This document shows positions 913-30,200 of a stretch of DNA of 35,226 nt, one piece after another. The number at the start of each line of letters is the position of its first letter. Positions within the stretch are counted from its first letter, which is position 1. Source of the stretch: Reclinomonas americana ATCC 50394 (taxonomy: Eukaryota). The stretch is from contig PS015178.1 of the NCBI GenBank assembly GCA_048213135.1, positions 57,950 to 93,175 of the forward strand. The letters run 5' to 3'. A model generated the notes under the pieces. That model saw only the letters and a list, made by a program, of their open reading frames with translations, was not told the DNA's origin and ran no database searches. A program made the position numbers and the translations under genes.

Positions 913-2316
913 TCACGACGACGATCGACTGCCGCTGTCCAAGCGTCGCAGCACTTCTATGATGTCGGCCAGACGCTGTGCATCGCTGACCAGCGGGCCG
1001 GTGACCACATCGCACGTGACGGAGCACGACACTTGGCCGGTGGCCGTGTTCAGCGAGAGGCGCAGGGGTGAGTGCATGCGGGCGTAGGCCTCGTGTTCCC
1101 CATCCACCGCCAGGTAACTGCACATGTGCATGTCGAGCGGGGTCACCATGGTGCGCACCTCCGCGCGACTCTTTCCCGGCTGTGGCAAGAAAAACACAAT
1201 AATGAGGACAGCACTCCTAGAGTCCGCGTTTTTTTTACATCGCTCTCACCTTTTCACGCGTCTGGTGCATCAGGGCAAATCGCTCATCTTGCAGCCGAAT
1301 GACCGCGCGACTGCGATCGCCCGGAGTGCGAATGGCAGACAGACGAGCCAACTGCAACAAACGGTGACGATGAGAAATACGAGAAAAAAGGAGTGAGACG
1401 GAAAGTGGCAAGTAGAGATCTGACCTCGCGCACGACATTCTCCTCTCGAGGGGTCGGCAGCGGAGTATGGCCGCCAATCAGCGTGACCAGATCACCCTGC
1501 GAGCACCACGTGACACTGCATGCATGCACGCGGCATGAGCATACACTTGTCTCGGACAAACTGCTGGACACAGACACACACACGCACACACCGTGACGAC
1601 AGGCCGCCTGTGGCTTTGACTTGCACTGGCTCACCGCTGTTGCTGCTGTCACTGGTTGTGTTGGCCAATCGCTTGGCATCAAACACGTGCTTGACAAGGC
1701 GCTGCGCCAAGACGTCGGGGACATCGAACTTGATTTTCTACACGACAGACAAGTCGCAGGAGTCAGCATGCACCAACGAGGCAGGAGCGTAGGCGAGGGG
1801 GGAGGGGGTGCGACGAACCTCCTTTGTGGACAGAGAACCGCTGAGTGCCAGGCTCGTCACCGGCGCTCGTCGTCTGCCATCAGCTGCAGTCAGCGACACT
1901 GACTGACCCAACTCCACGCTCTCTCCGCCGCCGACACACACGCACCTTATGCACTTGCCGAGGGAGATGAACGCCTCGCGCACCTCATCCACTGTCAAGT
2001 CCACATTGATCGACGACACTGTCTTGCTGGCCTTGGCCGGCTTGCTCTCCGCCGCCGCGGCCTTGCGTTCCTTGGGGCCGGAACTCGTCACCGCAACTGC
2101 CTTCTTCTTCTTCTTCGCCACCTGCTTGTCCTTGGGCGACACCGAGGAGCGCACGACATTCTTCTTCTTCTTCTGAGGTGCGTCGAAAGGAGAATTCTCT
2201 GCGGAGGCGACAACGAGAGGTGCGCTCTCCTCCTCGTCGGAGGGCTGGTCGAGAGAGATCTTGGAGGCAATCGCATGGCGACGGGCTTCTTGACGGGCGA
2301 GGCGCTTGAGAACCAT
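913..2316 (-). CDS. Multi-exon hypothetical protein with Lys-rich basic N-terminus (possible nuclear/nucleolar localisation)
   Basis: ATG at 2316 (MVLKRLARQEARRHA...KKKKN...KKKKKA). GT-AG introns join segments such as KIKFDVPDVLAQRLVKHVF, GDLVTLIGGHTPLP, LARLSAIRTPGDRSRAVIRLQDERF and PGKSRAEVRT...RRLDSGSRSSS*. No recognised domain; some internal boundaries are uncertain. Confidence 0.6.
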
Positions 2317-3248
2317 GGTGTGTTGTGTGTGTGCGTGCGTAAAAGGGCAGAAGGGAAATTGTGATGGCAAACCCCTCTGACGTCATGGATTGGGCGGGAG
2401 TCGTGATGCCGGAAAATTTACACGGCCACGCGTTGTGCTGTCAGTGACGATGGCGTGGTGAAGCAGAGGATCTTCGGCGGCATTCGCTGGTGATCTGATC
2501 TGCTGGCGACGCACATGCGGTATCTGTGCAAGTGTAAATATTCGAACACCAATTTGCAAAGCTGTATTCGAGTGATGCATGCAGGCGTTCGGAGTGGTTC
2601 CTGCTCGCGTGGCGCTGGCCACCGACGCCGCATCCTTGGTGACCATCGCTGGACGGGCTAGTGGTTTTGTGAATGCACAAGCGTTGGTTTCCTCTCGCAA
2701 AAACTCCAGCATTCGAGTGTTCGATTGCAGAATCTGGCCGTGAGTGCGCGACCCAGACGTGTGATCAAGGACTCATGCTCGTGTGCTGCAAGCAGGAAGT
2801 GTTTTGGTCGTCACCAATCGCAAAACGACGCCGTGGGTCGGAATCATAGTGCAATATTTGCCGCAAACGATGTACGAGCTCTGCCCCTTCTCCAGCGCAC
2901 CTCTCTCCGTCTTGACCGACCGCATGTACCGCTCTCCTTATTGCCTGTCTCGGCGTGTGCAGTTTGTCGTTGCACCATCATGTTCACATGCACCCGCCTT
3001 TGTTCGAAAGAGCGCACGGATCCGGACTTGCCAGATTCGTGCATCACGCCTCCGCTGCACACTCACACACGCACAATCATGCTCCTCTCCTGCACCCACC
3101 CCCTCTCTCACACACACAGATCGCACAACACAAGAACCTCGCACACGCGCGCGTTTGTGTGTCGTTTGCCAAGAAAGGTAATGATTAGGCATTGTTCCGA
3201 TCGGTCGGACTGACTCTCTACGCAAAACAACAACGCAATCCAAGCGCC

Positions 3249-6200
3249 ATGAGTGACGCGTCCCCGACACGCGGCTCGCCTTCTCCAGGCAAGCGCCTGG
3301 TGAAACGCAAGAAGCTCGTGCGGCGTCGCGTCTCCGGCGCCACCGACGACTCACAGTCACCTCCGCCTCCTCCCACAACAACAACATCAGCCACAGACGA
3401 CACCACCAGTGGCGCACGCAAGCTGCAACGCACTCGTCCTCCATCGCTGCAGCAACCATCGTCAGAGCCGCGCGTGCAAGTCTCGTTGCAAGGCGTGGTG
3501 CGTCAAAGTGTGGTGTGTGTGATTGGCCATGAGCTTCGGACGCGCGCTCACTCTCTCTCTCTCTCTCTCTCTCTCTCAGGTCTCCACTCCCGGTGGCTCT
3601 CTGATCAAGAGCTCTGCGCGCGATGAGACGCTCCCGTACAAGCGCACCTCGCTGGCTGCGCTCACGCCCTCCATCTATGGCTCACAGTCGTCGTCGTCAT
3701 CACGCGCTGCTGGCAAGTCGGCTTCTTCCTCTGCTGCTGCTGCTGCGTCGTCTGCGGATGAGGATGAGGGTGCGCGTGCTCGCGGCGGCGCGCGGAAGCA
3801 GCGTGGTAGCGGTGATGGTGGTGGTGGATCGAGTGGAGGTGGTGCGGGTGGAAGCAGCTGGGAGAGCAGTGGTGATGATACGCTGAATGACATTGGTGCG
3901 GATGCGTGTGTGTGTGCGTGTGCGTGTGTGTGGGGGGGCTGATTGTCTGTTTGTGTGGGGTCTTGATCTTTCATTCTCGTTCTCTCCGTCGTTTGTCTTC
4001 ACTCATTCGCACCGTGCTCTCTGTGCCGTTCTCTCTTCCTTGCGCTCACTGTCCCTCTCTTGGTGTGTTCTTGGTGACGAGTACGAGATTTAGGCGTCGG
4101 ATAAGTCGTCACCGGAGTCCGACATAGTCGTTGAATGGGTCTCGCATTCTTTGTCTCACTCACACGCATGCTCTCCAACTCTTCCCTGTCTCTCCCTTGT
4201 TCTCCCTCGTCCTCTCTTCGTGCGTCCTTGGTGACGATTGAGTAGTTTAGGCGTTGGATAAGTCGTCACCTGAGTCCGACATAGTTGGATTGAGTGCACC
4301 TCCTCTTTCTCGCTCTCCTTCCCCACTCTCTCACCATCTCTCTCTCTTTCATTTGCGCACAGCCAACGAGATTGTGGACGCGGCGCTCGTGCAAGGATGG
4401 GATCCGACATCGGCGTCCAAGGATCGCCCGTTTGATTTGGTGTCGGCGGAGGGACTGCTGTCGTTGTGCCATCGTGTGGAGCGCCTGTTGGCGCGCGAGC
4501 CCACGGTGGTCGAGCTGCCGGTGCCGTGCAAGGTACGAGTGTCCCCTTGGGCCACACGCATGATTGCTCTCTGCTCACTCTTGCTGGTGTGTGCGTAGAT
4601 CTTTGGCGATGTGCACGGGCAGATTGTGGACCTCCTCGACCTGTTCGCGACGTTTGGCCGGCCCAACACCATGAATGGCGACATGGGCTTTGTCAACTAC
4701 CTCTTCCTCGGCAACTACGTTGGTCGCGGCTGCTACTCGCTGGAGGTCATTACGCTGCTGCTGGCCATCAAGGCGTTGCATCCGCACAAGGTGTGCCTGC
4801 TGCGCGGCGCACACGAGGACGCACACGTCAACGAGGTAACTTTTCAACTGGTTCCCTCCACGCGTGTGCGCGCCGGCTGCTCATTTCTTCTCATTCTGTG
4901 TAGGAGGATGGCTTCTTGGGCGAGTGCACCACGCGCCTCGGTGCCGACAAGGGTCGTGCCGTGTGGGAGCGTCTCAACGAGTTGTTCGAGTGGTTCCCGC
5001 TCGGCTGCCGAGTGGCCGACGAGATCTTTGCGGTGCATGCCGGCATTGGTCGCTCCATCACCGACACGCAACAGCTGGCGGCCATCAAGAAGCCGATTCG
5101 TGCTCCCAACGGACCAATCATGAACGACACGGAGCGCGTCGTGTTTGACGCGCTGTGGAGCGATCCAACTGGTGTGTGTGTGTTTCTCAATCATTTTCTC
5201 GCTGAGTGGGGCAGTATCCCATCGATGCGGTTTTTGTCTCTGCATGCCTGTCACTGTTTCTTCACTCGTCTTCCTTCTCGCTCTCCCTCCCCCCTCCTCC
5301 CTCTCCGTTTCCGTCTCCCTCTCTCTCTCTCCCTCTCCCCTTCCCTCTCCCTCTCCCCTTCCCCTTTCTTTCTCCCTCTCCTTCTCGCTCTCCCTCTCCT
5401 TCTCCCTCTCCTTCTCCTTCTCTCTCCTTCCCCCTTTCCTCCCTCTCCTTCTCCCTCTCTTTCTCCCTCCCTTCCCCTTTCCTCCTTCCCCCTTTCCCCC
5501 TCCCTTCCCCTTTTCCTCCTTCTTCTTCACCCCTCTCATCACCCGCGTGTCACAGAAACCGACCGCCTCGTCGGCACATTCCACAACCCGCGTCGCGCCG
5601 GCAACGAGTACATTGTGTACGGCATTGACCGCTCCAAGGAGTTTTGCGAGAAGAACTCGCTGCGGCTCATTGTGCGCAGCCACGAGTGTGTCGATGGTGA
5701 GTCGTCGCCGCACTACGCGCTCTCTCTCTCCCTTCTCTCCCCGCGCGGCTTCTGACTGTCTCCCCGCAGCCGGCTTTGAGTTCTGCTCCCGCGGTCTCGT
5801 GCTGACGCTGTTCACGGCTAGCAACTACGGCAACCGGTATCCCAACAACTCGGCGCAGTTGGACGTCATCCGCAACCGCGTCACTGGCAAGCTCGAGATG
5901 CGCGCCAACGTGCTCGAGCCGCGCAAGGCGGCGCCTGGCAGCGCACCGCTGTGGGATGTTGCGTGTGTATATGCTTGTCTGTGTACTGTGTATTGTGAAA
6001 TGGCGTTTTGCTAAATGCACGCCTCCCACGACACAGATGTCCGTGCGTCGCCCGCCGACTCCCCCGCGTGGACACACGGAGGACTCGCCGCGCTACGTGT
6101 TCCGCGAGCCGCAGGAGTCGCGGCGCTCGGTGACCGAGTCCATGCTGGCCGGCCCGCCCACGTCGGTGCCGGGCTCTCCGATTGGTGGCGACTCGGGTCC

Positions 6201-9200
6201 AGTTGCGTTTCTCATCATCTCTCTTAAAGTCTCTCTTCTGTCCTCGCTGACCTCACACTCTCCTCCAGGGCTCTGCTCGCGGCCGCCCACGCGACCGTGC
6301 CTGCTGGTCCTACGACCTGACGTACCCGCCACCGGCACCTGAGTCGCTGGCACTCGAGTGGACACCAACGCAGTCGCCGCGCTCGTCGCGAAGCACGCCG
6401 CAGAGCAGTGCGAGCTCCATTCAGACGCACGACGCTTCGAATGGCGTCGGACCGAGTGGCGCCGCCAATGGCCACAAGCTGCGCACGCAGACCAATGGCG
6501 ACCATCCCGCCCACCGCACCTCCTCGGGCACGCTCACCAAGGAGATGCGTGCCATGTTTACCAAGCCGCAGCCGCAATCACCGGTGGTCCCTCCGCTGGC
6601 GACGGCCACGGCGGCGGCCCTGGCGCAGACTCCGGGCACACCCGGTGGCCCGAACTCGCCGGCCACCAATTTCGATTCGCCGGCGTCGACGGCCTCCGCA
6701 GACAGCTCCAGCGACATTGACATGCGCACCGCGCTCAAGTTCCTCAGCGAGGCCGGCGTCACGCTGGAGATGGTGCGCGACGCTCGGCGCATATTCCGAC
6801 TGGCGGCCGGTGCGAAGCGCGACGATCCGGTGCGCACCTCGGAGCTTCGTCTGGACGAGGCCACGGTGACTCGCATCCTGGTCAAGTACGGCGTGAGCCA
6901 CCGGTACGGACGGCAGTACTTCAAGGCCTTTGATCGCGAGAAGAACGGACGCGTTAACTTCCAGAACTTCCTCGTGGCACTGGTGGCCATGGACCCCTCC
7001 ACTCCGCACAAGCTCAATTCGGTGACTGGCGACTTGCGCCTGACGTTTGTGTTTGACACGTACCGCCCGAAGGGTTTGTTTGACTGTTTTCTTTCAGTCT
7101 CGCCGTGTTTGTTGCTGGCTCACTCACCTGCTGCCTTTGCTCATCCTGCAGGCGTGAATTATGTCGAATACCACGGCTTGCGTCACTTGGTTCGACACAT
7201 TCTGCGTGCGTCGCTCGACGAGGCATCGTCGGATGTGGTGGAGCATGAAGTAGAGGCGCTCATCACCGGCCTGCAACGGCAAACTGGCGCACCCACTCGC
7301 GAGGTTTGCTGTGCATGCAGCGATGCTTGGTGAATTGTGTGACACTCATCTGCTCAAATCGTCGCAGCTGTTCTACCTTGACGAGTTCAAGGAGGCGATT
7401 CGCAAGGGCCTCCTCAGTGGCACCACTCACCTCTTCCGACTGATCAAGTCACCATTCCGCACTCGCAACAAGCCACCACACGCGGGCGAGAGCGAGTCGC
7501 GGCCAGTGTCGCGACCCATCACCCCCGGACAGTTGCGTCGCACCACAAGTCACCAACTGATTTCGCTCATCAACTCACTCTTACTCTCTCTGCAGAGTTC
7601 CGGATCTTTCACCACGCTCCAGTGCCTCATCACTGCGTGGTGCCGACGGGCAGGCGCCACACACGCCGCGCACGTTGGACTTTTATGAGAGCGAGCGCGA
7701 ACGAATTCAGGCCACAAGGTTGACGGAGGACGTTTTCAGCGACACGTTTGACGAGGGCCTGCAGCGTCGCGCCTCCTCGATGATCATGTCGCCCATGTCG
7801 TCGGGCTCGTCCCGCATGCCCATGTCACCCACTGGCAGCTCTCCACCGCCGTGGCCACCGGCGAGTAACAAGACCAAGGAGGGCTACCGTATCCCACTGC
7901 CGCCGCAGCGCGCGTTGCCGTCCAAGCCAGACTTTGAGGAGCTGATGCCATCGCCACGCACGCGCGCCATTCTCGATGCGCCCGCTTCACCGCGTGGCAC
8001 ATCACCGAGCCCGACCAGTCCGTTTGCCGCCAGCCCGCCTTCCGGCTCTGGGCTGCCGGGTCTGCTGGATTCACCACGCGGTGTCACGTCCCCGACCACC
8101 CGTGCGCAGATGCCGTTCTCGACTGCAAATGCTGCCGTCTCCCGTTCCGGCATCCCGGCATTCGGCAGTGGCGTCACGGGTGTGGCGCCTCCCATTTCGC
8201 CTCGTGGTCTGCCCTCGGTGGCCGCTCCGCCACTGTCCCCTCGCGGTGTACCGCCCGCCGCCGCGGTGCTGCTGCCGAATGCCGGAGCACCGCTCTCACC
8301 ACGCGGCGTGTCGCCGCACGCCATGGCCGCTCTGCCAGTGGTGCCGCTGTCGCCGCGATCGGTACCCACGACGACGCCAGTGCGAGCAAATGCATTCCCC
8401 GCACTGCTGCCGTCGCCTCGTGGGGCACCGTCAGCCGCACCAGAGGGTGCTGTGGCAGCCGTGGTGGCGCCGCCGCTGCCCAAGTTGCCGCCGACAATGC
8501 CGTGCCCAACCGGCGTACCTGCGTCGCCACCGACCCCGCCGCCACAGCGAGGTTGGTTATTAGTCATCTTTGTGTTTTTATCTCTTGTTGGAAACTCACA
8601 TGTCGNNNNNNNNNNNNNNNNNNNNNNNNNNNNNNNNNNNNNNNNNNNNNNNNNNNNNNNNNNNNNNNNNNNNNNNNNNNCACGCTGCGCAGCCACTCCG
8701 CCATCGCCGCGTGACTCGCCACGCTCACCGCGTGATTCACCACGCGGTCAAACGGCCCGCGAGATTCTGGCCAAGCTGGGTACGGCGGCACCGGCACTGC
8801 CGACGGCGTCGATGCCAGCACTCCCCATGCCGCGCACTCTGCCGGCGGCGACACGCACGACCAGCCAACCGCTGGTGCCCAGCCAGTCGTCGTCACAGCC
8901 AATGCAGCCGGTGGCACGCGCTGTCTCGGAGAACCTCAACACGAGGGTGTTTGGCGTCGACCCGGCGCTGACACATCGTGTGCCTTACACGGGTTCGGAT
9001 TCGAGTGCACTTGATGTGTGTGTGNNNNNNNNNNNNNNNNNNNNNNNNNNNNNNNNNNNNNNNNNNNNNNNNNNNNNNNNNNNNNNNNNNNNNNNNNNNN
9101 NNNNNNNNNNNNNNNNNNNNNNNNNNNNNNNNNNNNNNNNNNNNNNNNNNNNNNNNNNNNNNNNNNNNNNNNNNNNNNNNNNNNNNNNNNNNNNNNNNNN

Positions 9201-9845
9201 NNNNNNNNNNCGTGTGTTTGCGTATCTCACATTGCAGTTCGCAGACTCTATCATGGTACCGCAGGCCCTGATGCTGTTATTCAAGTTCCTGCAAGGCATC
9301 AAGGGGTTCGCGCAAGAAAAGATCTTCCAGTGTGAGGCGCCCAATCGCGAAGAGTACGAGACCACCAAGGCCGTGCTCGACCGTGGCTCGAAGCGTCTGC
9401 CGTGCCAGTTGGTGCACACGGCGGCGGCCCTCATCAAGGCCTACTTCAAGGAGCTGCCTGTCAAGCTGCTCCCGCTGACTGTGGCCGACCTCGATAGTTG
9501 CGCGCGCAAGAAAGAAATAGTGGGAAAGCTTCGCTTTGCTGACTTGTGCCTGCAGACATGGACCCGGAGAGCATGGAAGCGGCGGAGCGCGTTGTACGCA
9601 GCCTTCCGCCTGTGTCGCAGGATCTGTTGTTGTGGTTGCTCGACGTGCTGGGCATGGTCGCCGAGGAGTACGATTCCTCAAGAATGGACTCGAGCACTCT
9701 CGGCTACGTGATGGCACCGTCGCTGGTCGAGTGCCGTACCCTCGTCGAGCGCGACGTGGTGACGGTCGTCAACAAGACCGGAAGCCTGATTGGCACAATG
9801 ATCCGCTGGCGTGCGCTGACCGCCTACAGCAAGCTTGTCAGATAA
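3249..9845 (+). CDS. Multidomain protein: PPKL/BSU1-like PPP-family (pseudo)phosphatase, EF-hand-like pair, Pro/Ser-rich SPR-repeat linker, RhoGAP-like domain
   Basis: ATG 3249, TAA 9843-9845, with phase-consistent GT-AG introns throughout; both N-gaps fall inside introns. PPP motifs: IFGDVHGQ, YLFLGNYVGRG, LRGAHE, VHAGIGRSI, LWSDP, IVRSHECV, LFTASNY. EF-hand-like loop: FKAFDREKNGRVNFQNF. RhoGAP signatures: VFGV, EKIFQ, AALIKAYFKELP, SRMDSSTLGYVMAPSL. Confidence 0.8.
4070..4284. repeat. Two copies (4070-4127 and 4227-4284) of a ~58-nt self-complementary element inside intron 2 of the phosphatase-fusion gene
   Basis: CTTGGTGACGA...TTTAGGCGTYGGATAAGTCGTCACCKGAGTCCGACATAG occurs twice at an offset of 157 nt. 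Confidence 0.85.
5268..5536. repeat. Polypyrimidine (CT-rich) low-complexity tract in an intron
   Basis: Almost pure C/T sequence between the SDPT donor (about 5172) and the CACAG acceptor (about 5555). Confidence 0.9.
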
Positions 9846-10289: not shown

Positions 10290-10819
10290 CTATGCGCGAC
10301 CACCCGTAATGTCGGTGAGTCGCACGCCACGCCGCCTGCTGGTGTCGTCGGCCGATTCCAGCTTGGCCAGTGCCTTGAAGGTGGCCTTCACGACATTCAA
10401 CTGCGTGCGGCGTCCCACAATCTTGGAATTCAGATCCTGAATGCCCAGCACCTGCCACAAACGCGATGTAAGCACCAACCCTCGCCAACCCACTCCATCA
10501 CGAGGCTCTGACGCAACACCACAAATGGCAGCAACCGCGCGCTGCGCCTTGATGCCGGAGGCAGGCTTGGCCGGGCGTAGCTTCACCTTGGTCTCAATGT
10601 ACTCGGCGTCGACCTCGTACGCAATGGTTCGGTTCTCGTAGCGATCGACAAAGCGCAGATTGCGGAACAAGTGCAAGCAGGCGCGACCCACTGCGGACTC
10701 GGCGTCCTCGCCCTACGGGAGAGAAGGGGGAAGGTATTGAGGATTGAAGGGGAAGGAATAGGAGAGAAGAAGGGTATGACTAGATGTTCTCTGTCTCTCT
10801 CTGTATGCATGCATGAATG

Positions 10820-10856
<37 letters not shown>

Positions 10857-11773
10857 CTCATTCTTGCTCTCTTCTATTCCTATTTCCGCTGCGTCCCACT
10901 TCACTCTGTGTATGCACGTTCTTTATTGAGAGAGTGTGTGCCCGCCTGTATGACTTGCCTTGCGCTCCTCCACCATCTCCTCCCTCTTCCGCTCCCCCCT
11001 TCTGTCTGTCTGTCTCAGTCTCGCTCTTTTTCTCCTCTTTCTCTCTCTCTCTCATTCTGCCTGTCTAACTGTCTCAGTCTTGCTGCCTTCCATTCCACTG
11101 TCTCCCTTTTCTGCAGCCTCTCTCTCTCCTCTCTCTGCATGTACGTTTGCTTGTTTAAATGTGCGTGCCTGTCGGTCTGTGCCCTCTTCCACACACACTC
11201 TCTCTCCCTCTCCCTCTGAGAGGGTGTACATACGTTTGTTTTGGTGTCTGTCTGTCTCCGCCTTGCTCTTTTCCCTCCTCCTGATCTCATACTCTCCCAC
11301 TTTCTCTCTTCGCACCTTGCCAAATCCAAATCCACCAAGCCCATTGTTGTTGCCACCGACAATGACCGCATTGGCGCTCATCACACGGCCGCCGCGCTCG
11401 ACCTTGGTCACGCGATTGATCTCCACCACACGAATCTCGCTGATCGGGTGCTCCAGCTGCGTGTGCTGCTGGTGATGCTCCAGTGCACGCTGCGCCACGC
11501 GCAACACGTGCTCGTCAATCGCCGCCTGCTGCTGCTGTGCGTCGTTCGCCACATCGTCGCTGTCGTCCTCGACAGCCGAGGATGATGATGATGATGAAGG
11601 GACCTGGTGCAACGGGAGGGATGAGAGGGGGGAGGAGGGAAGAGAGAGAGATAGAACAGCATGCGAGAGAGAGAGAGAGAATGAGAGAATGAGACCAATG
11701 ACTGGCGCTTGGTGGAAACGTTAGGAACGTGAGAGAGTAAGAATGAATGCACTGTGCCTAACGGGAAGAGAGG

Positions 11774-15063: not shown

Positions 15064-15133
15064 TAACAGTGCATTAGTTCTTCTTCTTCTTCTTCTTGGT
15101 TGCCTTCAAAACACTGTGCAGACAGCTAGCTCC

Positions 15134-17628
15134 TCACAGCTCAGCAGCCGGGGCTGCAGCTGCATCCGACGCTGCACCACTGCCTTCTGCCACGCTCGCA
15201 GCCATCACCACGCCCGACTGTGCGCCATCAGTCCTGGAGATGGTCACGGAGGAGGCCGCCGCAGCAGAGGCGCTGCCGGCGTCCACCGAGAGCGCCACCA
15301 TGCTCTCATCGGTCACCTGCGTCACGCCGACAACCACCACTGGCGGTTCGCCAGCTGCCACAGCCTCCGCCTCCCCCGCAGCCACGGCTGCCGCATCGTC
15401 GGAGCGCCACTCTTCCAACACAAAGGTCTCACCGTGGCGGGTCTACGACGGGACGACCAAATGTCAGCGCGCACTCGCACGTGGGGTGACTGGCGGTGCA
15501 ACACGCAACTGTGATGAAAGCGTCCTCCGCCAAGCCGTACGCTGCCGCCGCCTCGCGCACCTTGATCGGCGGCTCGTGGGTGTCCTCCAGCGAGAGATTG
15601 AAGGTGCCCCAGTGAATGCCCAGTGATCGTCGAGCACGAAGGTCAATGTGCATGCGCACGGCCTCCTCCGGATCGACGTGCTGCGGCGCGAGGAAGCTAT
15701 GTCACACAAAGTCTGTGAGTCGGCACTCAATGCATGGAGCACGAGAGGGGGACGACGCGAAACTGCCGCGGGCAATACGCTCCGATCGGAATGAGGGCCA
15801 GATCGAACGGGCCAAAGCGGTCGCCGACTGTGACAACGTCATTCAGCGTGAAGCGTGACCACCACACATAATACAAAGAAAGCGACGCTCAACTGTGCTT
15901 GAATTCGGAGCAGTAGCCAGTGTCGCCGGCAAAGTACATGCGCAGAGACGGCCAGTCGGGCAGCTGTGGAGGGATGTTCGGCGCGGCGCCGGAATCGCCT
16001 TGACCGCCAGTGTTTCTCGACACTGCGCGGCAGCGTGAGGCACATGGCGTGAGGCTAATGCAACAAGAGTTCACGCACACGTCGGAGCGGCCACCAGTCC
16101 GAAACCGTCAATGCCATGTGGAATACGCACGACCCAGCCTGCGCAGGGTGGGGGAAAGTGAGCTCCAAGATGACAGATCACTGTGTTGCGTAAGGCGCAC
16201 CACTCCACAGTGTCTTGTCCTTGTCGCGCTGTGACACACAGCATTGATGAGGCGCAAGACTGGGGGCAAGACACCACAATCTGTGCACGTACCAGTCCGC
16301 GTCGACTCCAATGCTGCGCCGGCACGCACACAATCTCGACCGGGAAATGGCTCTCGTCAATGGTCTCGGGCACGATAATGTGACTCTCGTACCAGCCAAG
16401 CTCGATAATGCTAAGAGAAGGAGTATATCAGCAGCTGCATTCATCGCACTTTGTGGAGAAAGAGACACACCGTTGCTGCAATGGAGAGTCACAGTGAGTG
16501 CGGGGTGAGCATGAGCGACGACGACAAGTCAATCCTCACCTTCTCGACTCCGCACTCGGCAATGACTGCGCCCAGCTTCAGCGGCACAAAGTACAGCGGC
16601 TTGTGGTGCTCCTCGATCACGCGAATCGACTTGGTGTCCAAGTGGTCGTAGTGGTTGTGCGAGATGCACACGGCGTGTACTGGGGGCAGATCGGCAATCT
16701 CCACCGGTGGCAACACGTAACGCTTCGGACCCTGTCACCATTCGATGAGCATAACAAGCAGCTCGATGTACCAAAGCAAGGGGAGGGGGAGGCACGCAAC
16801 AAACATCTGCGACGGCGACGCACGCATGCTCCACACTGCAACGGTCTACATAAGCAACTCGAAACCGAAATCACGAAAGAAAGAGGAGAGCGCACCCGGA
16901 TCCGTGAGAATGCTAAAGCCAGCCATTTGCACAAAGGCGGTCGCATGCCCGATCCAGGTGCACTGTATACACAGACAGCGACACATGTCATGATCTCCGC
17001 GTCATGCTCGCACGCGCGCAAACTCCGCGGCGAGTGACCGACAGACCTGCACCCCGCGAAGTGGCGGACTCTCCAGCTGCATCGAGTCGATCTCCGCCAC
17101 CGAGTGATGCCTCTCAATGTGCTCCTCCGACGGGTTCCGACGAAACACAAACTGTGTGTGTGTGGAGAGTGAATGAGCAGATGCCGCGAGAAAAGAGAGG
17201 CGCAAAAGTGACACACCTTGGTCATGGTGCCCAGCTGCACAACACACAGACACGCACACATATGTGAGTTGTGAGGGCACGCACGCAGTGTCGACGAGTG
17301 AGTTACGAAACGTTCTTCAAGATCTGCACATCGCGCCACTGTGTGCCACGAAACAGAGTCAATAAACGCAACAAAAGCTCACTCTCTTCTCCACTCACAC
17401 ACACACACACCGTTGGCCACGGGTTCACAAAGTGCACTCCCGATGGCTTTGTGTAAGACTCGCGACCTGTGCGCACCGTGTCAGCAACACAATCACACAC
17501 AAAGACACTCACTCACACAGAGAGAACATGCCTGTGATTGGCGATCGCAGAACCTGCTCGGGATCAAAGCCCACCAGTTGCTCAATGGCAAAACCAGCGC
17601 TTTGACCCGACCCTGTCGCACTTTGCAT
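15134..17628 (-). CDS. NAPEPLD: NAPE-PLD-like metallo-beta-lactamase-fold phospholipase D with Ala/Ser/Glu-rich C-terminal tail
   Basis: Spliced motifs: FVNPWPT, TWIGHAT, ILTDPVWSMRASPSQMFGPKRY, ISHNHYDHLD (HxHxDH), VPAQHWSRRG, YFAGDTGY, IGDRFGPFDLALIPIGAYCPR, QHVDPEEAV, GIHWGTFNLSLE, RHGET. Likely ATG at 17628. Confidence 0.9.
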
Positions 17629-20340: not shown

Positions 20341-21986
20341 TCACAACCGTAGATTACGAAGCGCCGTTACCGGCCGATTTAGTGTGGGCGGGATCGGCAG
20401 CAGCCAGCACAGGATGCAGTCGGAGCCTAGCACGGAGCGATAGTTGCGCATAAAGCCGACGTTGTACTGGTGCGCGGCCCAGGTGCGTCGGTAGCCGGTG
20501 GCGTCGGTGTCGTTGGCCGACTTCATCGCCAGCGCGTCAATGGTGGTGACATTGTAGGCCAGCATGCACAGGTGCCGAATGAAAAAGTATGTCAGCAGCG
20601 CGCACAGGGCCAGCGTCAACACGCTGGCCACCACCAGATGCACGGCCTGGAACACGTCGGGCAGTTCGTCGGTGCTGACGGCTCGTGTCTGCGCACACGT
20701 GCACTAGTGTGAGTCGAACAGGAGATGTACCCACAGTCACAGGTGCCTGACACCGACACTGACCAGCATGGACAGGGTGTCGAGTGTCACCGGCAGCATG
20801 GTGCCACCCATCCACCCGCACAGCAACGCCGTGTACAACACGGTGAGCAGGAAAAACTTGTGGTTGCGCAAGCCGATGCACTGCCCGACCCACATGCAGT
20901 GGTGATCCATGCGCAGAATGCACACGTCGCACGTGGAGCAGTGGTGGGTGCGGTCGGGTTTGATCTCGTGGCAGCGAAGGCACACTTTCGGGTCGAACAG
21001 CACGCCCAACAAGCTGCTGACGAATGGCAGCACGTCGTTTTGTGCCTTGTTATTGCCACCACTCTGTCCGGGCAGCAGCGGGGAGGAAGCGGCGGCCGCG
21101 CCGTCACTTGCCGACAGAGCTCCACTTGGCGGCCGTTTTCTAGCATGCGGCGGAGAAAAGTCAGAGTCGTGATACCCTTGTCTCCAGCTCTGCACGCACA
21201 CACGCGCGCACGCACCTGGGTGCTTGTGGACGATCATTTGTCGGATGCACTGGTCGGCCCGGCGACACCAGTGCCGCCATCCAGTACGACCACTCGAACA
21301 GCAGCAAAATGGCACCGCCGACAGAGATGCGCACAATGCACCATGCCTGCTCGCACCCACGAAAGAGAGAGAAATAGGTGAGGGCAGTGCGGGGAAACAG
21401 CGACGAGCACTCACTCGGAGGAGGCGCGTGCTCGGAAATGATTGAGTTCGACATGTCGCGCGCGCGAAAAATACACACACAAACACACACAGGGACAAGT
21501 GCACTCTCTCTCAGTGTGTGGAGGGCGATGATGACGACGATTGTGATGCGCGCGCACATCCACTCGGAGAGAGAGAGCGAGGCGAATCACCATCAATCAT
21601 CTTGCTTTCGCGCGCCAAAATCCTTGTTTTCCGCGCCATGACTGAATCTCGGCCTTGTTTCTTTCCTCTCTTCTTCCCCACCCTCTCCCACCCCCTACCA
21701 CCACCCCTCGTTACCGTCAGTGGCAGTGCCGGTCGAGGATCGCCCACCTCGTGCACCAAGTGTGGCAACACGGTGTACATGACATAGACACACACGCCGT
21801 ACAGCAGCACCAGGTGGGCCAGACACATGCCGAGCACGTTGATCGTCGACTGTCTCCGTGGTCTGTGTCGCGCAGCGTGGGCGACAGAAAGCGTGCAGCA
21901 GGAGTGAGAGAGACGAGAGAGAGAGAGGAAGATCACAATGCCGACAATCACCGTGGAGGCAGAAGACCAAGTGGCCGGTGACCCAT
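20341..21986 (-). CDS. DHHC palmitoyltransferase (copy 1)
   Basis: CLRCHEIKPDRTHHCSTCDVCILRMDHHCMWVGQCIGLRNHKFFL Cys-rich domain, four hydrophobic TM-like segments, SPG after TM2, NVTTID and YNVG...N...VLG C-terminal motifs. ATG at 21986 (MGHRPLGLLPPR). Confidence 0.9.
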
Positions 21987-22115
21987 GAGCGGAACTCACG
22001 CACACAACAACTCTCCACACACAACGCCCACTCCCGACAGACGCACACACACAGCCAGCAGAAGCAACAACGCCGACGCGGGACAAACCACATACCGGGG
22101 ATGGTGCCATTTACT

Positions 22116-23427
22116 TCAAGACGGCACATCCAAGTGGCGAGGCAGCGCGTCAGCAGTCGCCGGCAGCCCTGGAGGCACCACCAGAAGCCACGTCCAGTAC
22201 CGCGAACCAAACACTTGCTTGTAGTTCTCCACCCACGACCTCGGCGGCTGACAATCCCACGAGCGCCTTCGGCCGTCGGACTCACCCGCCTCGCGCAAGC
22301 GGTTCATCTCACCGGTCGTGAGATCGTGCGCCAGCATGTGCAAGTGTCGGCGCAGGAACATGCACACCACGCACGCCAGAGACAGCGTGAGGAGTTCCAC
22401 CAGCAGCACGTTCACCAGGCGACCCGGATTAATGAGTCGACGGTGACGGCTGACACGCTGCGTTCGGCGCGTGAGACACATCACAGATGCACATACATAC
22501 ACACTGTGTCGACTCACCTGCCCGTGCAGCACATCGACCAAGTCCGGCAGCAGCGTCACCGCCATCCACACCGTGGTCACTTGCACGTAAAACACCAGCA
22601 GCACAAAGTACTTGTGGTTGAACAGGCCGACACAGTTGCCGATCCAGAAGCAGTGGTGATCGTAGCGCACACTGCACACGTCACAGTGTCGACAGTGATG
22701 TGTGCGCGCACGCTTGATCTCGTGGCAGCGCACACACAGCGTGCTGATCGGCTGCCCGTTCATCATCTTTTTGTGAAAGTGCTCGGCCAGCTTGCAATCG
22801 TCAATCAGCACATCGTGCAGCTGCTCCATGCGCTCGACCACCGTCGACCCTGCCGCCTCCTTGGCCGCGCCCACCTCCGCATCCAGCACCGCCAGCGGCT
22901 CGCCCGGCAACATGTTGCGCACCTTGGCATACGCGCGATCCAGCGTGCTGATCAAATCAAAATGCGGCGGCCTTCCCGGCGACATCCACGCCGACATGAC
23001 ATACGCCAGCTCCAGCGATCCCACCAGCAGCACCGTGATCACCGAGCGCGCAATCGTCCAGCCCTACCTCACCACGAGCACATGAGGAGACAGCAACATG
23101 AGAAAGGGAGGAAAGAGGATGTGGTTTGCCGCAACTCTCCACGTCGTGCTCGGATGCGCGTACCACGACGGAATGATGCCCTCCACCACATACACCACTG
23201 TGCAGTACACAATCGCCGCCTGTGCCAGTGACATGAAGGCCACGTTTTGCAGCGGGAACAGGCGCTCTCTGCAGACACCAGACACCAGTCAGTGTCTCTT
23301 CCTTTTTCTCACACTCTCAGTTGTCTTACCGCTGCGGGAGGAGGCCTATTGGAGGATACGAGCTCGGCCTCGGCTTCTTCTTGTGCTCCTTCTCATCGTC
23401 GTCGTCGTCGTCTCCGCCGCCCTTCAT
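22116..23427 (-). CDS. DHHC palmitoyltransferase (copy 2)
   Basis: CVRCHEIKRARTHHCRHCDVCSVRYDHHCFWIGNCVGLFNHKYF, SPG, DLTTGE and NYKQVFG motifs. Exon 1 is MKGGGDDDDDDEK...PPIGLLPQR from ATG 23427 with a CG|GTAAGA donor. Confidence 0.9.
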
Positions 23428-24230
23428 CTGGCGAAAGATATCACGATATCCGCGAGTCGCGTCTGTCCATTGTCTTCTGTCCGCAGTCGACATCGACTCA
23501 AAAACGAATGGGTGAGTGACAACACGCGCCACTCTGTGTTGTCTCTCACTCACGCGCGCTGTCTCTTTTGTCTCTCCTGCCCTGTGTGCGCGTGTCNNNN
23601 NNNNNNNNNNNNNNNNNNNNNNNNNNNNNNNNNNNNNNNNNNNNNNNNNNNNNNNNNNNNNNNNNNNNNNNNNNNNNNNNNNNNNNNNNNNNNNNNNNNN
23701 NNNNNNNNNNNNNNNNNNNNNNNNNNNNNNNNNNNNNNNNNNNNNNNNNNNNNNNNNNNNNNNNNNNNNNNNNNNNNNNNNNNNNNNNNNNNNNNNNNNN
23801 NNNNNNNNNNNNNNNNNNNNNNNNNNNNNNNNNNNNNNNNNNNNNNNNNNNNNNNNNNNNNNNNNNNNNNNNNNNNNNNNNNNNNNNNNNNNNNNNNNNN
23901 NNNNNNNNNNNNNNNNNNNNNNNNNNNNNNNNNNNNNNNNNNNNNNNNNNNNNNNNNNNNNNNNNNNNNNNNNNNNNNNNNNNNNNNNNNNNNNNNNNNN
24001 NNNNNNNNNNNNNNNNNNNNNCCTTCTCATCGTCGTCGTCGTCGTCTCCGCCGCCCTTCATCTGGCGAAAGATATCACGATATCCGCGAGTCGCGTCTGT
24101 CCATTGTCTTCTGTCCGCAGTCGACATCGACTCAAAAACGAATGGGTGAGTGACAACACGCGCCACTCTGTGTTGTCTCTCACTCACGCGCGCTGTCTCT
24201 TTTGTCTCTCCTGCCCTGTGTGCGCGTGTC
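23388..24230. repeat. Identical ~209-nt duplication (23388-23596 and 24022-24230) flanking an N-gap; probable scaffolding artefact
   Basis: The sequence immediately left of the gap is repeated exactly to its right, offset 634 nt. Confidence 0.85.
23428..23507. promoter_or_regulatory. Putative 80-nt bidirectional promoter between DHHC copy 2 and SPT6
   Basis: Divergent ATGs at 23427 (-) and 23508 (+); the same spacing holds in the duplicated copy (24061/24142). Confidence 0.55.
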
Positions 24231-27200
24231 TCTCTCTGTTGGTGCTCATGTGTGTGTGTGTGAATGCACGCAGAGTTTGTGGATCGCGCGGCTGAAGTGA
24301 GTGGCGATGAGGAGGAAGATGACGAGGAGGACGAGGAGGAGGAGGAGATGACGGCCAAGGATCGTGAGTTTATCGGTGAGTGCAAACCTGCATTGTGCAT
24401 CTCTCTCTCCCTGCGCGCGCGCGTGTGTGTGTGTTGTCTTTTGCGCGCGTGTGTGTGGCATGTCGACTCTGACATCGACGACAACTCACACACACGCACA
24501 CGCGCAGCTGGTGCTTCGTCGTCGTCGGGAGGAGGTGCAGGCGCGATGCAACGAAAGCGACGACGTGCACTCTCTGACGATGAGGAAGGCAACGATGACG
24601 AGGAAGGGGCGCAGCCGTCTGCAAAGGATGGCGAGGAAGAGGAGGACGAGGAGGAGGATGAAGAGGATGAGGATGAGGAAGAGGAGGAGGAGGATGACGA
24701 GGACGGGGAGCCGCAGAAGAAGCGTCGACGCATCGTCTCGGGTCGCAAGCTGAAGCAGCGCAAGGAGGAGTTTATGGCCGAGTTGCAGAATCTGCAGGAT
24801 GTTGCGTGCGCAGCAGCAAAGCTCTTCCTTCTCCTCTCCCGCTGTGCACTCACTGACACGAGCGCGTGCATGTGCAGGATGCGGTGCGATCGTCGAGTGA
24901 CGAGGCGGGTGGCTACTCGGACGAGGAGAAGTCCAAGGCCTCGTCGCAGCGCAAGAAGAAGAGGAGAAGAAAGGAGCATGCGGAGGCGGGCGGTGGTGCA
25001 GGTGGTGCCCGTGCCGGCAGTGACGATGAGGAGGCGGTGGATGCGCTGGTTGCGAAGAAGAAAAAGAAGAAGAAGAAGCTGTCGGTCGTGGACGAGCTGG
25101 AGGAGATGGGCGAGGAAGACGACGACGTGATGCGGTTACCAGAGGATGTGTACGTTGTCCTCCTATGGCTCCCTTCTTTGAGTGCCGAAACGGGGGATAG
25201 CTGATGCGAATTGTCGTGCAGGGGTGGCGGCGACAAGCGACTGACGTCGGTGTTTGGAGATGCGGATCTGCTGGCCGACATGTTGCCGCCCGACGAAGGC
25301 ATGGAGGAGGGTCAGTATGGCGACGCGGAGGCTGGATTCGATGTGTACAGCCGCCTCCTGCAGCGCTTTGAGCCCGCCGAGCTCGCCGAGCGTCATCTCA
25401 CCGACGAAGATGCCGTCATTCTCCACCAGGACATTCCCGAGGAGCTGCAGGTGAGCCAGCGAGTGTCTTTTTCTCTTGTGCCGACCTCACACATACTCAA
25501 TTGTCGTGTGCTCGGTTCCAGGTGCGTCTGCGTCGCCGGCCGCCACCCTCACAAGCGGAGCTGGAGGAGGAGACACGGTGGATCTACCGCACGTATTTCG
25601 AGACGGACGCCTCGACACGCGCCTACGAGGGATTCGGCATTGACGATCCGCGGTACGGCATGTCGTACGCCGAACTCAAGATCAAGGCCATTCGTGCGTG
25701 CCTGGTGGGCATGCTGTGCGAGCACCTGGAGCCGGGTTTCTTGTGGATGTACCGCCGCGATGACTTTCCAGACGGCACACTGGTTCGCCGGGTTCACGCA
25801 CACGTCGTCACTCACTGGGAGATGCTGTTTTGCTCACTGCGATCTGTGTTGTTTTTTCTTGGGCAGACCGCGGTCGATGTGTGGCGTCTGCTGGATTATG
25901 ATGAAATCTGGGTGCGACAGGCCAGGAAGCTGGCCTCGTTGCGTTCGGTGGTGGAAGCCTACAAGGCCGACGAGGCGCGTGCAGTGGACACGGACGAGCA
26001 GAAGGCGTTCTTGGAGGCGTTTGAGCGACTGGTGCTGCGAGCCGTGGAGGAGGGTGCGAAGGAGGCCGAGGTCGAAGACATGTTTTCGTACTGGCAAATC
26101 ATGACCACTGTGGGCGAGGCCAAGTCGCTGGTCCGGCGTGACGAGTACCATCGATTGGTTCGCGTCGGTTTCAACGAGTACATTGCCAAGTTGCGCTTGA
26201 ACGTGCACGAGTACCTCGACACCATTATGAATGCCGGTGTGCCCGAGTCTATTGAGGTGCGTTGCTATGTGCGTGACAGTGTTGGCTTCTTGCCTCTCTG
26301 ACTGTGTGTCGTGATTGCGCGCCGCAGCCCTACCACTTGGATCCGGTGGAGTTTGTGTCGCAAGAGTGCGAGCCACTGCTGTTCTCGCTGGAGACGTTGA
26401 CAACGGAGGATGCGGTGCTGGCCGGCATTCGCAAGGTGGTGGCCACTCGCATTGCGCACGAGCCGGAGTTGCGACGCCGCATGCGTGATGCGTTGCGCGA
26501 CTCGGCCGTGGTGTCCACCCAGCCGACGGAGAAGGGCGACAAGACGATTGACGTGTTCCATCCGGACGCCAATGTCAAGCGCATTGTCAACAAGCCGGTG
26601 TACAGATTCTTGCGCGATCAGGACGACGTGCACTTCTTGCACATGGTGGTGGCGGAGAAGCGTGGACACATTGAGATTGACATTCGAGACGAGGAGCCGG
26701 AGAAGACGATGCAGAGGGTGCGTGCGCAGCATGCATGTGCGCGGTTGCTGTCGCGCTGTATATTTTGATGTTGACAAATGTGTCGCTCGCAGGTACTGCA
26801 ACCCGAGTGCTTCCTCATTGACAGCCACTCTGCACTCGCCACGGCATGGAACGAGCAGCGCCGTCTCATTCTGCAGGATGTGCAGGAGATGTTGTATGAG
26901 GCGTGCATTCCGGAGATTCGCTCCGAGTTGCTAAAGGTCGCCGAGGACAATGCCATGGATTTGTGTGCGCGCAAGCTGCGCAATCTGGTGTACCATCGTG
27001 GATTCGTGCCCCCCGGCTACAATCCCAACGACGCGTCGGGTCTGTTACTCATGCACGGGTCCTGTGTCGCCGGTGCAGGAACTGATTTGTTCTGTGACAG
27101 ATCCATGGTTCTTGGTGGCCTGCGTGTACCAAGATGCCAACAACCCCATTCACTTTGTCAAGGTCACCATGGAAGGCGATGTTGCGTTTGACGCGTGTTG

Positions 27201-30200
27201 TTTTCTTTCCGTCATCGTTGTTGTCTGTGTGTACCGACCTGGCGATTGTTGTTGTTCAGTATGTGGATTCGCTGGTGTGGGGCCTGCGCGACATGGCGGG
27301 CGGCATGCGCTCCGTCGAGTACACGCGAGATATGGAGAGCCAGCATCACACCCTCGCCATGTGGCTGCAGGAGGGCAATGTGCGCGGCCTGGTGGTCGGT
27401 GTGCGTGACCAGACGGTACGACGGCTGCTCGGCGAGCTGCGCAAGCTGATTGACGAGTCCGCCGACCTCAAAGACCACGTGACGCTGATCGACATGGACG
27501 AGGATATTGCAAAGTTGTACGAAGCCGGCGAACTGGCCACAAATGAGTATCCCGACTGGACCGACTCGAATGGTCTGGCCAAGAGGTTTGTTGATGGGAG
27601 CAGGGGTGGGCGATTTGAAATTGTGTGCGGGCACGTGCTAATGGTGATGCAGACGGTGCTTGTCGCTCGCACGACGAGTGCTGGAGCCACTGTGGGAGTT
27701 CTCCTGCCTGTTCAACACCAACAAGGACATTCTCAAAGTGCACATGCACACGTTCCAGTCGGCAGTTGTGTCTCTGCAGCCTTCCTCAATTCATGCAAGA
27801 TCGAGCTCCTCAACTCTCTTCTGTGCAGTTGCCGCAAGACCGTCTCATGATGCGTCTGCGAGAGGAGATGCGCATTGTGACTGCCACGGTTGGTGTGCGT
27901 GTGAACATTGTGATTCATCGACCGCACGCGTGGCCAGTGTTGCAATTCGTCGCCGGCTTGGGACCCCGCAAGGCGCCCGATCTGGTGGTGCAATTGCAGA
28001 AGCTGGAGGTGCGTCTCTTAGAGTGACTCACTTGTGTGTGCCTGCCACTGCTCACATTCACGCACAACAGGGAGGCTGCTTGCAGTCGCGACACCAGCTG
28101 CTGCAGCTGGTGGGCGAGGTGGTTTTCAACAATGCGGCTGGTTTCCTGTTTGTGACGCTGGACGACGAGGAGGGCAGTGGTGGATGTTGCGGCACGCATC
28201 ATTGTCTTTTGCTGCGCGCTCTCGCTTATCTTGTCTCTTCTCTCCCCCTCTCTCTCACACGCGACAGCGCTGGTGGAGCGGAGTCGCATCCATCCCGAAT
28301 TCTACCCGCTGGCCATCAAAATCGCCGTCGACGCTCTCGACCAGGAGGTCTCACCGGACCCGATTTTGCGCATGCAAGAGTACTATCAGCGTCACATGAC
28401 GTTTGCCGAGTTGCTCGACTCGGATGGCCTCGACCCGCTGCTCAACTACGTGGACGACCTGAAGCGACGCAATCTGAGTGCGGAGACACTCTTCCCCGCT
28501 GGTTTGTGTTGGATGGAGGGAAAGGGATGTGTTGCGAGATGAGCATGCGCTTGACGAATGCTCTGTGAATGCAGCTCAAATCGAGAAGCTGGGCATGTGT
28601 GCGAGCGAGTACGTCGAACGGAGTGTGCCGTTCAGCAAGGAGCGCACTGTCACTGCGTTGGCGGGTTCGTGTGTGGCCCCCGTCTTGATCATTTCAGTTT
28701 TCTTCATCCTTCTCACGCATTCATACAGCAGACCGAGGGAAAAATGTTGGCAATGGCAACGATGACGACGACCTCGGAGATGACTTGGACGATGCGGACG
28801 ACGACGATGATGAGATTGGCGACGACGAGTTGGCGGCCCTCGGCGGCAATGGCGATGACGCGTGCGTGCTCTTTCCTTGAGAGTATTCTCCTCGTGCATT
28901 CCTCATTCTTTTTGCTCAACGCGACAGTCAACTTGCTGAGGCTCGTGCGGCTCGTCAGCGAGAGCGTGAGGAGAGGCGGCGGCAGCGTGAAGCTCGACGT
29001 CAAAAGTTGCGCAACCACATGACCGCGCAGTGGTTGCGTCAGGCATCCCACACGTGTTGATTGACCGACGATCTTCTTGCAGACGACTGCTGGACAAGAC
29101 TCCGTTGCATGTGGTGATTATGCGCGGATCGATCATCAGTGCGGCGTTCTTGTGCCAGCGCGAAATCGATCATGCAGGGGAGGACGAACGACCGCCGTTT
29201 GCGGAGCCGACCATGGAGGAGCGATTCCGCATGCTGTTTGGTGACATTCCGGGCGTGACTCTGATGGAGGGCATGCCGGTGTTGGCCGAAGTCGTCCGAC
29301 GTTGCGTTGCTCTCATTCTTTCTCACGCACCTTTTCGTATTTACTCAATCTGTGTGCGCGCGCAGCGGCACAAACGGCCTCCGACTACAGCGACAACAAG
29401 GCCAGCAAAATCATCTGCCGACTCACCGACAACAGCTGTCCTGCCATCTACTTTGCCAACGACCCCACACCCGCCGAGTGCACACGTGGTTCGATTTTGG
29501 ATCTGTGTGTGGAGCGTATCGAGTTGCCGCAACCGTCTGTTGCGTGCCGCATTCGTCTTCTCCGCATCTGTTGTTGTGTTTTCGCGCTGGTTGACATCCG
29601 TGTCCAGGAACCATCCATGATGTTGGATATGGCGCGCGACGCGCCATGGTGGGATCGCATGCAAGTCAAATTGCAGACGAGAGACACTACGCGTGAGCGT
29701 GATGCATCGACGCGCAACTTTGACGAGTACCTGAGATTCACGGCACCGCCCGAGTATCGCGCCAGCTCCTCGACCAGTTGCGTATCGGCAAGAGAATGCA
29801 GCTGCTGTGCTGTGCGGCTGCTGATTGTGTTCCTGCAGCCAAGCGGTCGTCGCGCACCCTGGTCAGTCGCCCTATCAATCATCCGTTCTTCCGCAACTGG
29901 ACGTGGAGCGAGGCCAAGGAGCACTTGAAGGTGGATCATCCATTGTTGGGGCATTTTTCGGGTTTGTCGACTGACATGGTGACGTGATCACGCAGGATGC
30001 ACCGATTGGCGACCTGATCATCAGACCAAAGCCCGGCAACCATGCGCGCCTCTGCATCAGTTTCAAATTCTTCTCTGGTCTCGTCAGCAACATCGAGGTG
30101 GAGGAGAAAGACAAGCCCAATCCATTAGCACTCGGTCAGCGTTTGCTGCTGGACAAGCACGAGTTCGAGGATCTCGACGAAGTTGCGTGACCACGCACCA

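Follow-up and report, generated by a model that had tools for sequence, protein, structure and literature searches.

Phosphatases of the PPP family with a Bsu1-type catalytic domain, EF hands and no Kelch repeats form a described group, with members in Thecamonas, choanoflagellates, Basidiobolus and Nannochloropsis (Kerk et al. 2021, PMC8249667). PfPPP8 of Plasmodium, described as the first PPP pseudophosphatase, has both Asp residues of the GDxxDRG motif replaced (GNLINRG) and is inactive in vitro (PMC10317984). RhoGAP domains that lack the arginine finger are likewise inactive, and that of OCRL1 binds Rac1-GTP and Cdc42 (PMC8305018, PMC4278560). We describe a gene on the plus strand, at positions 3249 to 9845 of a 35,226-nucleotide stretch of Reclinomonas americana ATCC 50394 (contig PS015178.1, positions 57,950 to 93,175; “the window”), in which a Bsu1-type PPP domain is followed by an EF-hand module and a RhoGAP-like domain.

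The best explanation of this locus, to which we assign a probability of roughly 0.55, is one gene for a 1550-amino-acid, noncatalytic signaling scaffold that goes back to a Kelch-less EF-hand Bsu1 (EFPP-type) phosphatase. Judged from the sequence, what is new is the EF module standing solely behind the PPP domain, the attached RhoGAP-like domain and three degenerate sites; the pairing of PPP and EF modules is itself known. The gene should not be filed as a PPKL, an active RhoGAP or a Ca2+ sensor. Its parts are as follows.

3249 to 3895, plus strand: N-terminal region (exons 1 and 2), amino acids 1 to 188, of low complexity with Ser, Gly and basic residues, without a Pfam match
4363 to 5957, plus strand: Bsu1-type PPP domain (exons 3 to 7), amino acids 189 to 523, Pfam Metallophos, predicted pseudophosphatase
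6037 to 6201, plus strand: exon 8, with an RPPTP motif at 6049 to 6063
6269 to 6709, plus strand: linker 1 (first part of exon 9), rich in Ser, Thr and Pro
6710 to 7451, plus strand: EF module, NCS/KChIP/calcineurin B-like (exons 9 to 11), amino acids 726 to 925, of the EF-Bsu1 family
7452 to 8946, plus strand: linker 2 (end of exon 11, exon 12 and the greater part of exon 13), containing 13 Ser-Pro-Arg motifs and about 20% Pro
8552 to 8692, plus strand: intron 12, with the assembly gap 8606 to 8680 and 66 non-N bases; the sole place where a gene break is possible
8947 to 9845, plus strand: RhoGAP-like domain (end of exon 13 and exons 14 and 15), amino acids 1356 to 1550, PF00620 at 26 and 39 bits (cutoff, 24.5)
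3249 to 3497, 3580 to 3895, 4363 to 4532, 4599 to 4835, 4904 to 5171, 5556 to 5696, 5770 to 5957 and 6037 to 6201, plus strand: exons 1 to 8
6269 to 7073, 7152 to 7303, 7368 to 7531, 7596 to 8551, 8693 to 8992, 9245 to 9496 and 9556 to 9845, plus strand: exons 9 to 15

Phosphatase domain

The preliminary description of this DNA had likened the PPP domain to the BSU1/PPKL clade, and BSU1 is indeed its best relative of solved structure, both for exon 4 (E = 3.6e-19; 72 bits, against 58 for PP2A and 56 for PP1) and for exon 5 (E = 1.5e-11), where BSU1 alone passes 1e-6. After the catalytic domain, exon 8 contains an RPPTP motif that Kelch-type Bsu1 relatives from metagenomes (loci L004, L005 and L013) also have behind theirs. 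The Kelch repeats themselves, already reported missing from the N terminus, are absent: a profile built from three Kelch-Bsu1 N termini recovered the controls L005 and L019 but gave no match when the window was searched in six frames (best E = 0.7, elsewhere), neither the Kelch nor the EF profile matched exons 1 and 2 in six frames, and Pfam has no match there.

One of the three PPP motifs is intact (GDVHG, for GDxHG), and two are changed (GNYVGRG for GDxVDRG and GAHE for GNHE). In what we take to be PP1 numbering, with residue roles assigned on the same assumption, the substitutions are D92N (at 4713; N284), D95G (at 4722; G287) and N124A (at 4809), while D64, H66, R96, H125, H173, H248 and Y272 are kept. 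Of 103 aligned relatives, 102 retain D92 and every one retains D95; the gene studied here has neither. A set of 79 intact relatives defines 51 columns with conservation of 95% or more; the domain retains 43 of these, and the eight changes are D92, D95, N124 and five mild ones, a pattern that fits a fold still under selection. In a midpoint-rooted tree of 47 of the 104 PPP domains collected, the domain is placed, on a long branch and with support of 94/85, as a possible sister to 17 intact EF-Bsu1 rows, its nearest rows are of the EF-hand Bsu1 type, and its top identity, 46%, is to a Chromera protein. Membership of PPEF/RdgC was considered and rejected: the 60 best of the 92 solved relatives are of the BSU1, PP2A, PP1 and PP2B types, although the tree contains no PPEF row.

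These losses could in principle be drift, the gene being a recent chimera or in decay and without a function under selection, as the long PPP branch, the three degenerate modules and the single instance might suggest. We regard this as highly improbable, given 1550 codons free of stop or frameshift, a GC3 of 0.78 to 0.87 in the PPP and RhoGAP exons and the 43 retained columns.

Catalytic residues are changed elsewhere in the clade too. A set of EF-PPP(-EF) proteins whose named members are dinoflagellates (P0003, P0009, P0029 and P0035 to P0050; 100/100 for nine rows) has lost D64, N124, H173 and H248 and mostly keeps D92 and D95; from these residues, it is apparently a second, independent pseudophosphatase type within the EF-Bsu1 family. 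A metagenome scan with exon 4 gave 42 loci of Kelch-Bsu1, EF-Bsu1 and PP1 types. In ciliate-code Bsu1-like loci (L001, L017 and L019 to L021, of which L019 has Kelch repeats), the Asn of GNHE is Ala or Ser, and in L001 and L017 this N124 change stands without the Asp changes; further pseudophosphatases among these loci are possible on the strength of that residue. With the N124 change standing alone in ciliate loci and a different set of residues lost in the dinoflagellate-type group, inactivation seems to recur in the Bsu1 clade.

EF-hand module

A query of positions 6710 to 7303 against 1.84 billion representatives returned 34 proteins and delimited a module of ∼200 residues; one match, the YadA-type adhesin P0010, was set aside as spurious. 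At the level of the family, the profile of EF alignment A1 shows homology to four-EF-hand modules, matching KChIP (E = 2.7e-16), NCS-1 (E = 1.7e-14) and calcineurin B (E = 1.9e-13). The EF hands noted in the preliminary description therefore stand, but not their extent: in place of a pair at 6900 to 7200 there is a complete NCS/calcineurin B-like module at 6710 to 7451. Introns 9 and 10 are supported by this module, since once spliced it aligns with its relatives across exons 9 to 11. Together with the Kelch-less Bsu1 domain, the common EF module family bears out the kinship with EFPP/PPP8-type proteins suggested at the outset. The closest match to the module is P0001, a protein of 474 amino acids with two tandem EF-Bsu1-type modules and no phosphatase domain.

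Loop A (6932 to 6967) keeps Asp1 and Gly6, has Asn at position 12 and is without acids at positions 5 and 12; loop B (7064 to 7177) has Arg at position 1 and Gly at position 12, with no acid at either. Of 116 related modules, 107 carry D/E at position 12 of loop A and 109 do so at position 12 of loop B. As both loops are without ligands that most relatives keep, the Ca2+ sensing that had been thought possible is doubtful, with the position 12 acid gone from both loops and Asp1 from loop B.

RhoGAP-like domain

The C-terminal domain, first placed at about 8940 to 9845, is well founded, with Pfam scores above the cutoff for exons 14 and 15 and 30 of 30 Atlas matches being RhoGAP. In the arginine finger's place stands Gln1399 (9328 to 9330), and what we take, from motif context and spacing, to be the secondary Lys of helix B is kept as Lys1435 (9436 to 9438). 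The two are 36 residues apart, as are R232 and K268 of RLIP76 (the spacing in p50RhoGAP is 37). Gln1399 was placed by this spacing and by Pfam offsets (about profile position 23, presumably the Arg column) rather than by residue-level alignment; there is no Arg between residues 1366 and 1404, the nearest being Arg1365 and Arg1405. Val and Pro positions aligned to solved RhoGAPs are also kept. The sequence may resemble plant RopGAP and rhizarian RhoGAPs. Exon 14 found nothing among viral contigs or in a PDB sequence search, and an AlphaFold model of exon 14 alone (pLDDT, 56; pTM, 0.31) was not used. The missing arginine finger, like the degenerate EF loops, was absent from the first reading of the gene.

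Two rival readings concern the activity of these modules. One protein, not wholly dead, might retain GAP activity through another residue (e.g., Arg1405 or Gln1399) or bind Ca2+ at loop A, so that it would inactivate Rho under Ca2+ control and be targeted by its pseudophosphatase domain. The kept secondary Lys, the Asp1 and Gly6 of loop A and the existence of Arg-independent GAPs such as Rap1GAP (PMC2386819) are in keeping with this. We nevertheless think it unlikely, as Arg1405 lies 30 residues from Lys1435, against 36 to 37 in RLIP76 and p50RhoGAP, and the loops lack acids at positions 5 and 12 (loop A) and 1 and 12 (loop B). Alternatively, an inactive scaffold might use the RhoGAP-like domain as a peptide-docking surface with no GTPase binding, much as the OCRL domain binds adaptors with F&H motifs. 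The divergence of the C-terminal half of the domain would suit such a role, to which the retention of the secondary Lys and of the Val and Pro positions leaves only a small probability.

One gene or two

The gene is confirmed as real at the DNA level, and so are its exon structure, its domain identities and its residue substitutions. The model has 15 exons and 1550 codons, the only stop is terminal (9843 to 9845) and 14 of 14 introns have GT-AG borders, in a region that is eukaryotic and intron rich. Since the exon ends were picked by eye, phase consistency alone is no test, and the model was assessed with a codon model trained on the neighboring Spt6 gene (15 training pieces). By this measure 14 of 15 exons score positive, with the model frame as their best; for exon 1, at −3.4 bits, that frame is still the best, and all 14 introns are negative in every frame. 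All five 90-nt windows of linker 1 are positive in the model frame, which is the best frame in four. Of the 14 introns, 11 have a branch point-like motif at a distance of 15 to 33 nt from their 3′ end, compared with 4 of 62 exonic YAG sites. A Viterbi parse recovers all 15 exons, differing only at the exon 2 donor (3907 rather than 3895); its splice matrices were taken from seven Spt6 introns and seven introns within conserved domains of the studied gene, with linker introns excluded, and its branch point weight from a motif survey that included all introns of the gene. The continuous, phase-consistent exon chain from PPP through EF and linker to RhoGAP proposed in the preliminary description thus holds at the DNA level.

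Domain searches on single exons agree with this layout. Pfam finds Metallophos in exons 4 to 6, EF-hand in exon 9 (17 bits, under the cutoff) and RhoGAP in exons 14 and 15, and an Atlas search concurs for the EF and RhoGAP pieces. Protein searches by word index with single exons gave no match, a weak test given that relatives later turned up with HMMER, and an NCBIfam scan gave nothing useful. A 363-nt contig from another DNA run, covering 5530 to 5883, differs in intron 6 (three substitutions and two insertions) and, silently, at one site of exon 7, a pattern that, coming from a single contig, lends weak support to the model.

Whether the chain is one gene hinges on intron 12. A break had also been thought possible in the gap 9025 to 9210, but that gap sits inside the RhoGAP region, and only the gap 8606 to 8680 could hide one. 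A PPP-EF-linker gene and a separate linker-RhoGAP gene might meet there, as two true neighbors or through a scaffolding error. Gap sizes in this scaffold are unreliable: 209 nt are exactly duplicated (23388 to 23596 and 24022 to 24230) on either side of a 425-N gap (23597 to 24021), indicating that the contigs overlap and that the lengths of N runs cannot be trusted. Tandem genes can also sit close together in the window (stop at 31281, next candidate ATG at 31378), and the fusion is seen in no relative. Such a break would nonetheless have to fit a terminal exon, untranslated regions, a start and most of another intron into an estimated 75 nt. The sequenced flanks of intron 12 total 66 nt, a normal length (11 of 13 other introns have 59 to 82 sequenced bases), and they carry a donor (score, 6.0) and, across the gap, an acceptor, with a branch-like motif at the usual distance, 23 non-N bases upstream of the acceptor. 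Repeats continue across the gap as well: Ser-Pro-Arg motifs of linker 2 number nine upstream and four downstream, and a 25-nt DNA repeat, 84% identical, stands at 8068 and 8734. The best single-gene parse reaches 847.4 bits, against 812.6 for the best two-gene parse (35 bits worse), and breaks forced in three linker stretches cost 60.5, 44.1 and 48.9 bits. The evidence for the join across the gap is indirect; we regard a single transcript across 3249 to 9845 as highly probable and two genes as quite unlikely.

Architecture among relatives

Of 104 relatives, 99 could be classified (five had no module match at the thresholds used): 59 are EF-PPP, 15 EF-PPP-EF and 25 EF only, mostly fragments, and none has PPP-EF as its only order. 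The EF module precedes the PPP domain in all 74 relatives with both parts, 15 of which also have a rear one, whereas the gene studied here has the rear one only; no EF module was matched upstream of the PPP domain in the window. RhoGAP was found in none of 71 EF-module proteins of 491 to 2000 amino acids (68 of them with Metallophos; the best 8000 candidates were scored, and the named matches are alveolates) and in none of 33 scanned proteins from the 34-protein EF search, many of them fragments (P0006, of 5499 amino acids, was left out for its length). Nor did the RhoGAP part match any of 134 proteins by phmmer (best E = 2.1) or, by tblastn, any of the 42 metagenome loci, among which the EF part matched L003 only.

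In literature searches outside subscription journals and bioRxiv supplements, the PPP-EF-RhoGAP combination was undescribed; the available parts of PMC8918327, PMC8785970 and PMC5859476 contain no such fusion, and “RhoGAP” does not occur in the supplement of PMC8249667, which shows its sequences in part. The earlier statement that the architecture is undescribed accordingly stands for the combination but not for loss of Kelch with gain of EF hands, which is an already known Bsu1 subtype (PMC8249667). The relatives sampled are mostly alveolates; because lineages near R. americana may be poorly sampled, the absence of the fusion elsewhere is only moderately strong.

Weighing the scaffold reading

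Several observations count against a single scaffold derived from an EF-hand Bsu1 phosphatase. No second organism with PPP-EF-RhoGAP was found among the relatives examined. The Viterbi parser is blind within N runs, and linker introns 8 and 11 have low-scoring donors (−1.1, from a small weight matrix), although the hexamer of these donors recurs as a donor in Spt6. The tree placement, with support of 94/85 on a branch of 1.57, gives limited support for EF-Bsu1 kinship. Losses at 3 of 10 catalytic positions, compared with 5 of 41 other conserved positions, are an enrichment that is not strong by itself. Finally, the C-terminal half of the RhoGAP-like domain is divergent (phmmer E at least 0.16 to solved RhoGAPs), and GTPase binding may have been lost along with it.

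The scaffold role proposed in the preliminary description is supported by the degenerate PPP, EF and RhoGAP sites, as read from their residues, and we consider it likely that all three modules are inactive. Starting from an EF-PPP-EF ancestor, the protein would have dropped the EF module at its N terminus and acquired a RhoGAP domain at its C terminus, a route to PPP-EF that exists given that EF-PPP-EF occurs in 15 of the 99 classified relatives. With Gln in place of the arginine finger and the secondary Lys kept, the RhoGAP-like domain would bind GTP-loaded Rho/Rac without switching it off and might bring the protein to the cortex, in the way described for OCRL. The PPP domain, missing the bridging Asp, the His-activating Asp and one metal-binding Asn and keeping the phosphate-binding Arg and His, may hold phospho-Ser/Thr partners without hydrolysis, as proposed for PfPPP8. 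The EF module, its Ca2+ ligands lost, could be a fixed peptide-binding module. There are 15 Ser-Pro-Arg sites across the linkers, compared with 1 in 1336 amino acids of Spt6; as targets of proline-directed kinases, they could gate contacts. Binding of Rho-GTP and trapping of phosphoproteins have slightly less than an even chance of being right.

A role in cell division or cortical actin is more tentative. A division role is suggested solely by family association, PfPPP8 being at the basal complex and BSL1 reportedly being linked to mitotic entry. In its most specific form, which we put forward as speculation, the protein would be a triple pseudoenzyme under selection that combines a PPP pseudophosphatase of the Bsu1 clade with an NCS-type module blind to Ca2+ and a RhoGAP lacking its arginine; as an effector of Rho/Rac-GTP, it would trap phosphoproteins at the site of division. 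If true, this would be the first direct physical link of Bsu1/PPP8 cell division phosphatases to Rho signaling. One protein would have retained three signaling folds after loss of each chemistry, and the natural fusion with a Rho-binding module points to a testable class of partners for the EF-Bsu1/PPP8 family. The weight of the case is limited by its being a single gene and by the recurrence of arginine-less RhoGAP fusions in eukaryotes.

Other features of the window

The gene is flanked by a minus-strand gene that starts at 2319 and, on the other side, by the convergent gene for ribosomal protein S5. Intron 2 of the studied gene holds two 97-nt copies of a repeat (4032 to 4128 and 4189 to 4285), 81% identical, with nearly identical cores of ∼60 nt bounded by an 8-nt inverted repeat. 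No further copy was found in the window and no match in Rfam, and folding z-scores are unremarkable (0.30 and −1.15); intronic small RNAs and a very small repeat element are both possible readings of the copies. Hidden microexons in these repeats were rejected on inspection, as they would introduce a stop or frameshift. Other genes in the window are as follows.

913 to 2319, minus strand: spliced gene with a Lys-rich N terminus, divergent from the studied gene; no Pfam family at the cutoff in the two pieces scanned
10290 to 11600, minus strand: gene for ribosomal protein S5, probably organellar, in which Pfam finds the N- and C-terminal domains
∼15100 to 17620, minus strand: candidate NAPE-PLD-type hydrolase of the metallo-beta-lactamase fold, by eye
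∼20370 to 23460, minus strand: two tandem genes, by eye candidate DHHC palmitoyltransferases
24270 to 31281, plus strand: Spt6-like gene whose C-terminal tail is long and rich in Pro; Pfam finds SH2_2 and the Tex central region

Comparison with known systems

The EF-hand Bsu1/EFPP proteins, including apicomplexan EFPP (PMC8249667), share with the studied gene a Bsu1-type PPP domain, the absence of Kelch repeats and the EF module family. In contrast, a front EF module is present in each examined relative with both parts, none of those examined has a RhoGAP domain, and catalytic motifs and Ca2+ ligands are intact in most. PfPPP8 (PF3D7_1018200, Plasmodium basal complex) has a Kelch-less Bsu1-type domain (PMC4256932) in which both Asp residues of GDxxDRG are replaced (PMC10317984); the studied gene has lost N124 too and has added a RhoGAP-like domain, and the Asp change common to the two may be convergent. 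The BSU1/BSL/PPKL proteins of plants and alveolates provide the best solved relative and share the RPPTP motif, whereas the studied gene has no Kelch propeller, has lost catalytic residues and carries two additional C-terminal modules. PPEF/RdgC proteins likewise place EF hands after a PPP domain (PMC4256932), but the PPP domain here is Bsu1 type and the EF module belongs to the EF-Bsu1 family, in comparisons whose tree holds no PPEF sequence.

Outside the PPP family, OCRL1 and INPP5B (PMC4278560, PMC8305018) also join a phosphatase fold to a C-terminal RhoGAP-like domain without an arginine finger. OCRL differs in being an active inositol 5-phosphatase of another family with PH and ASH domains, so that the likeness is an analogy of design and not whole-protein homology. 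Class III plant formins (PMC2386819) similarly reuse an arginine-less RhoGAP-like domain as a probable Rho-binding module in a lineage-specific fusion; their fusion partner is the actin nucleator FH2, whereas that in R. americana is a phosphatase domain.

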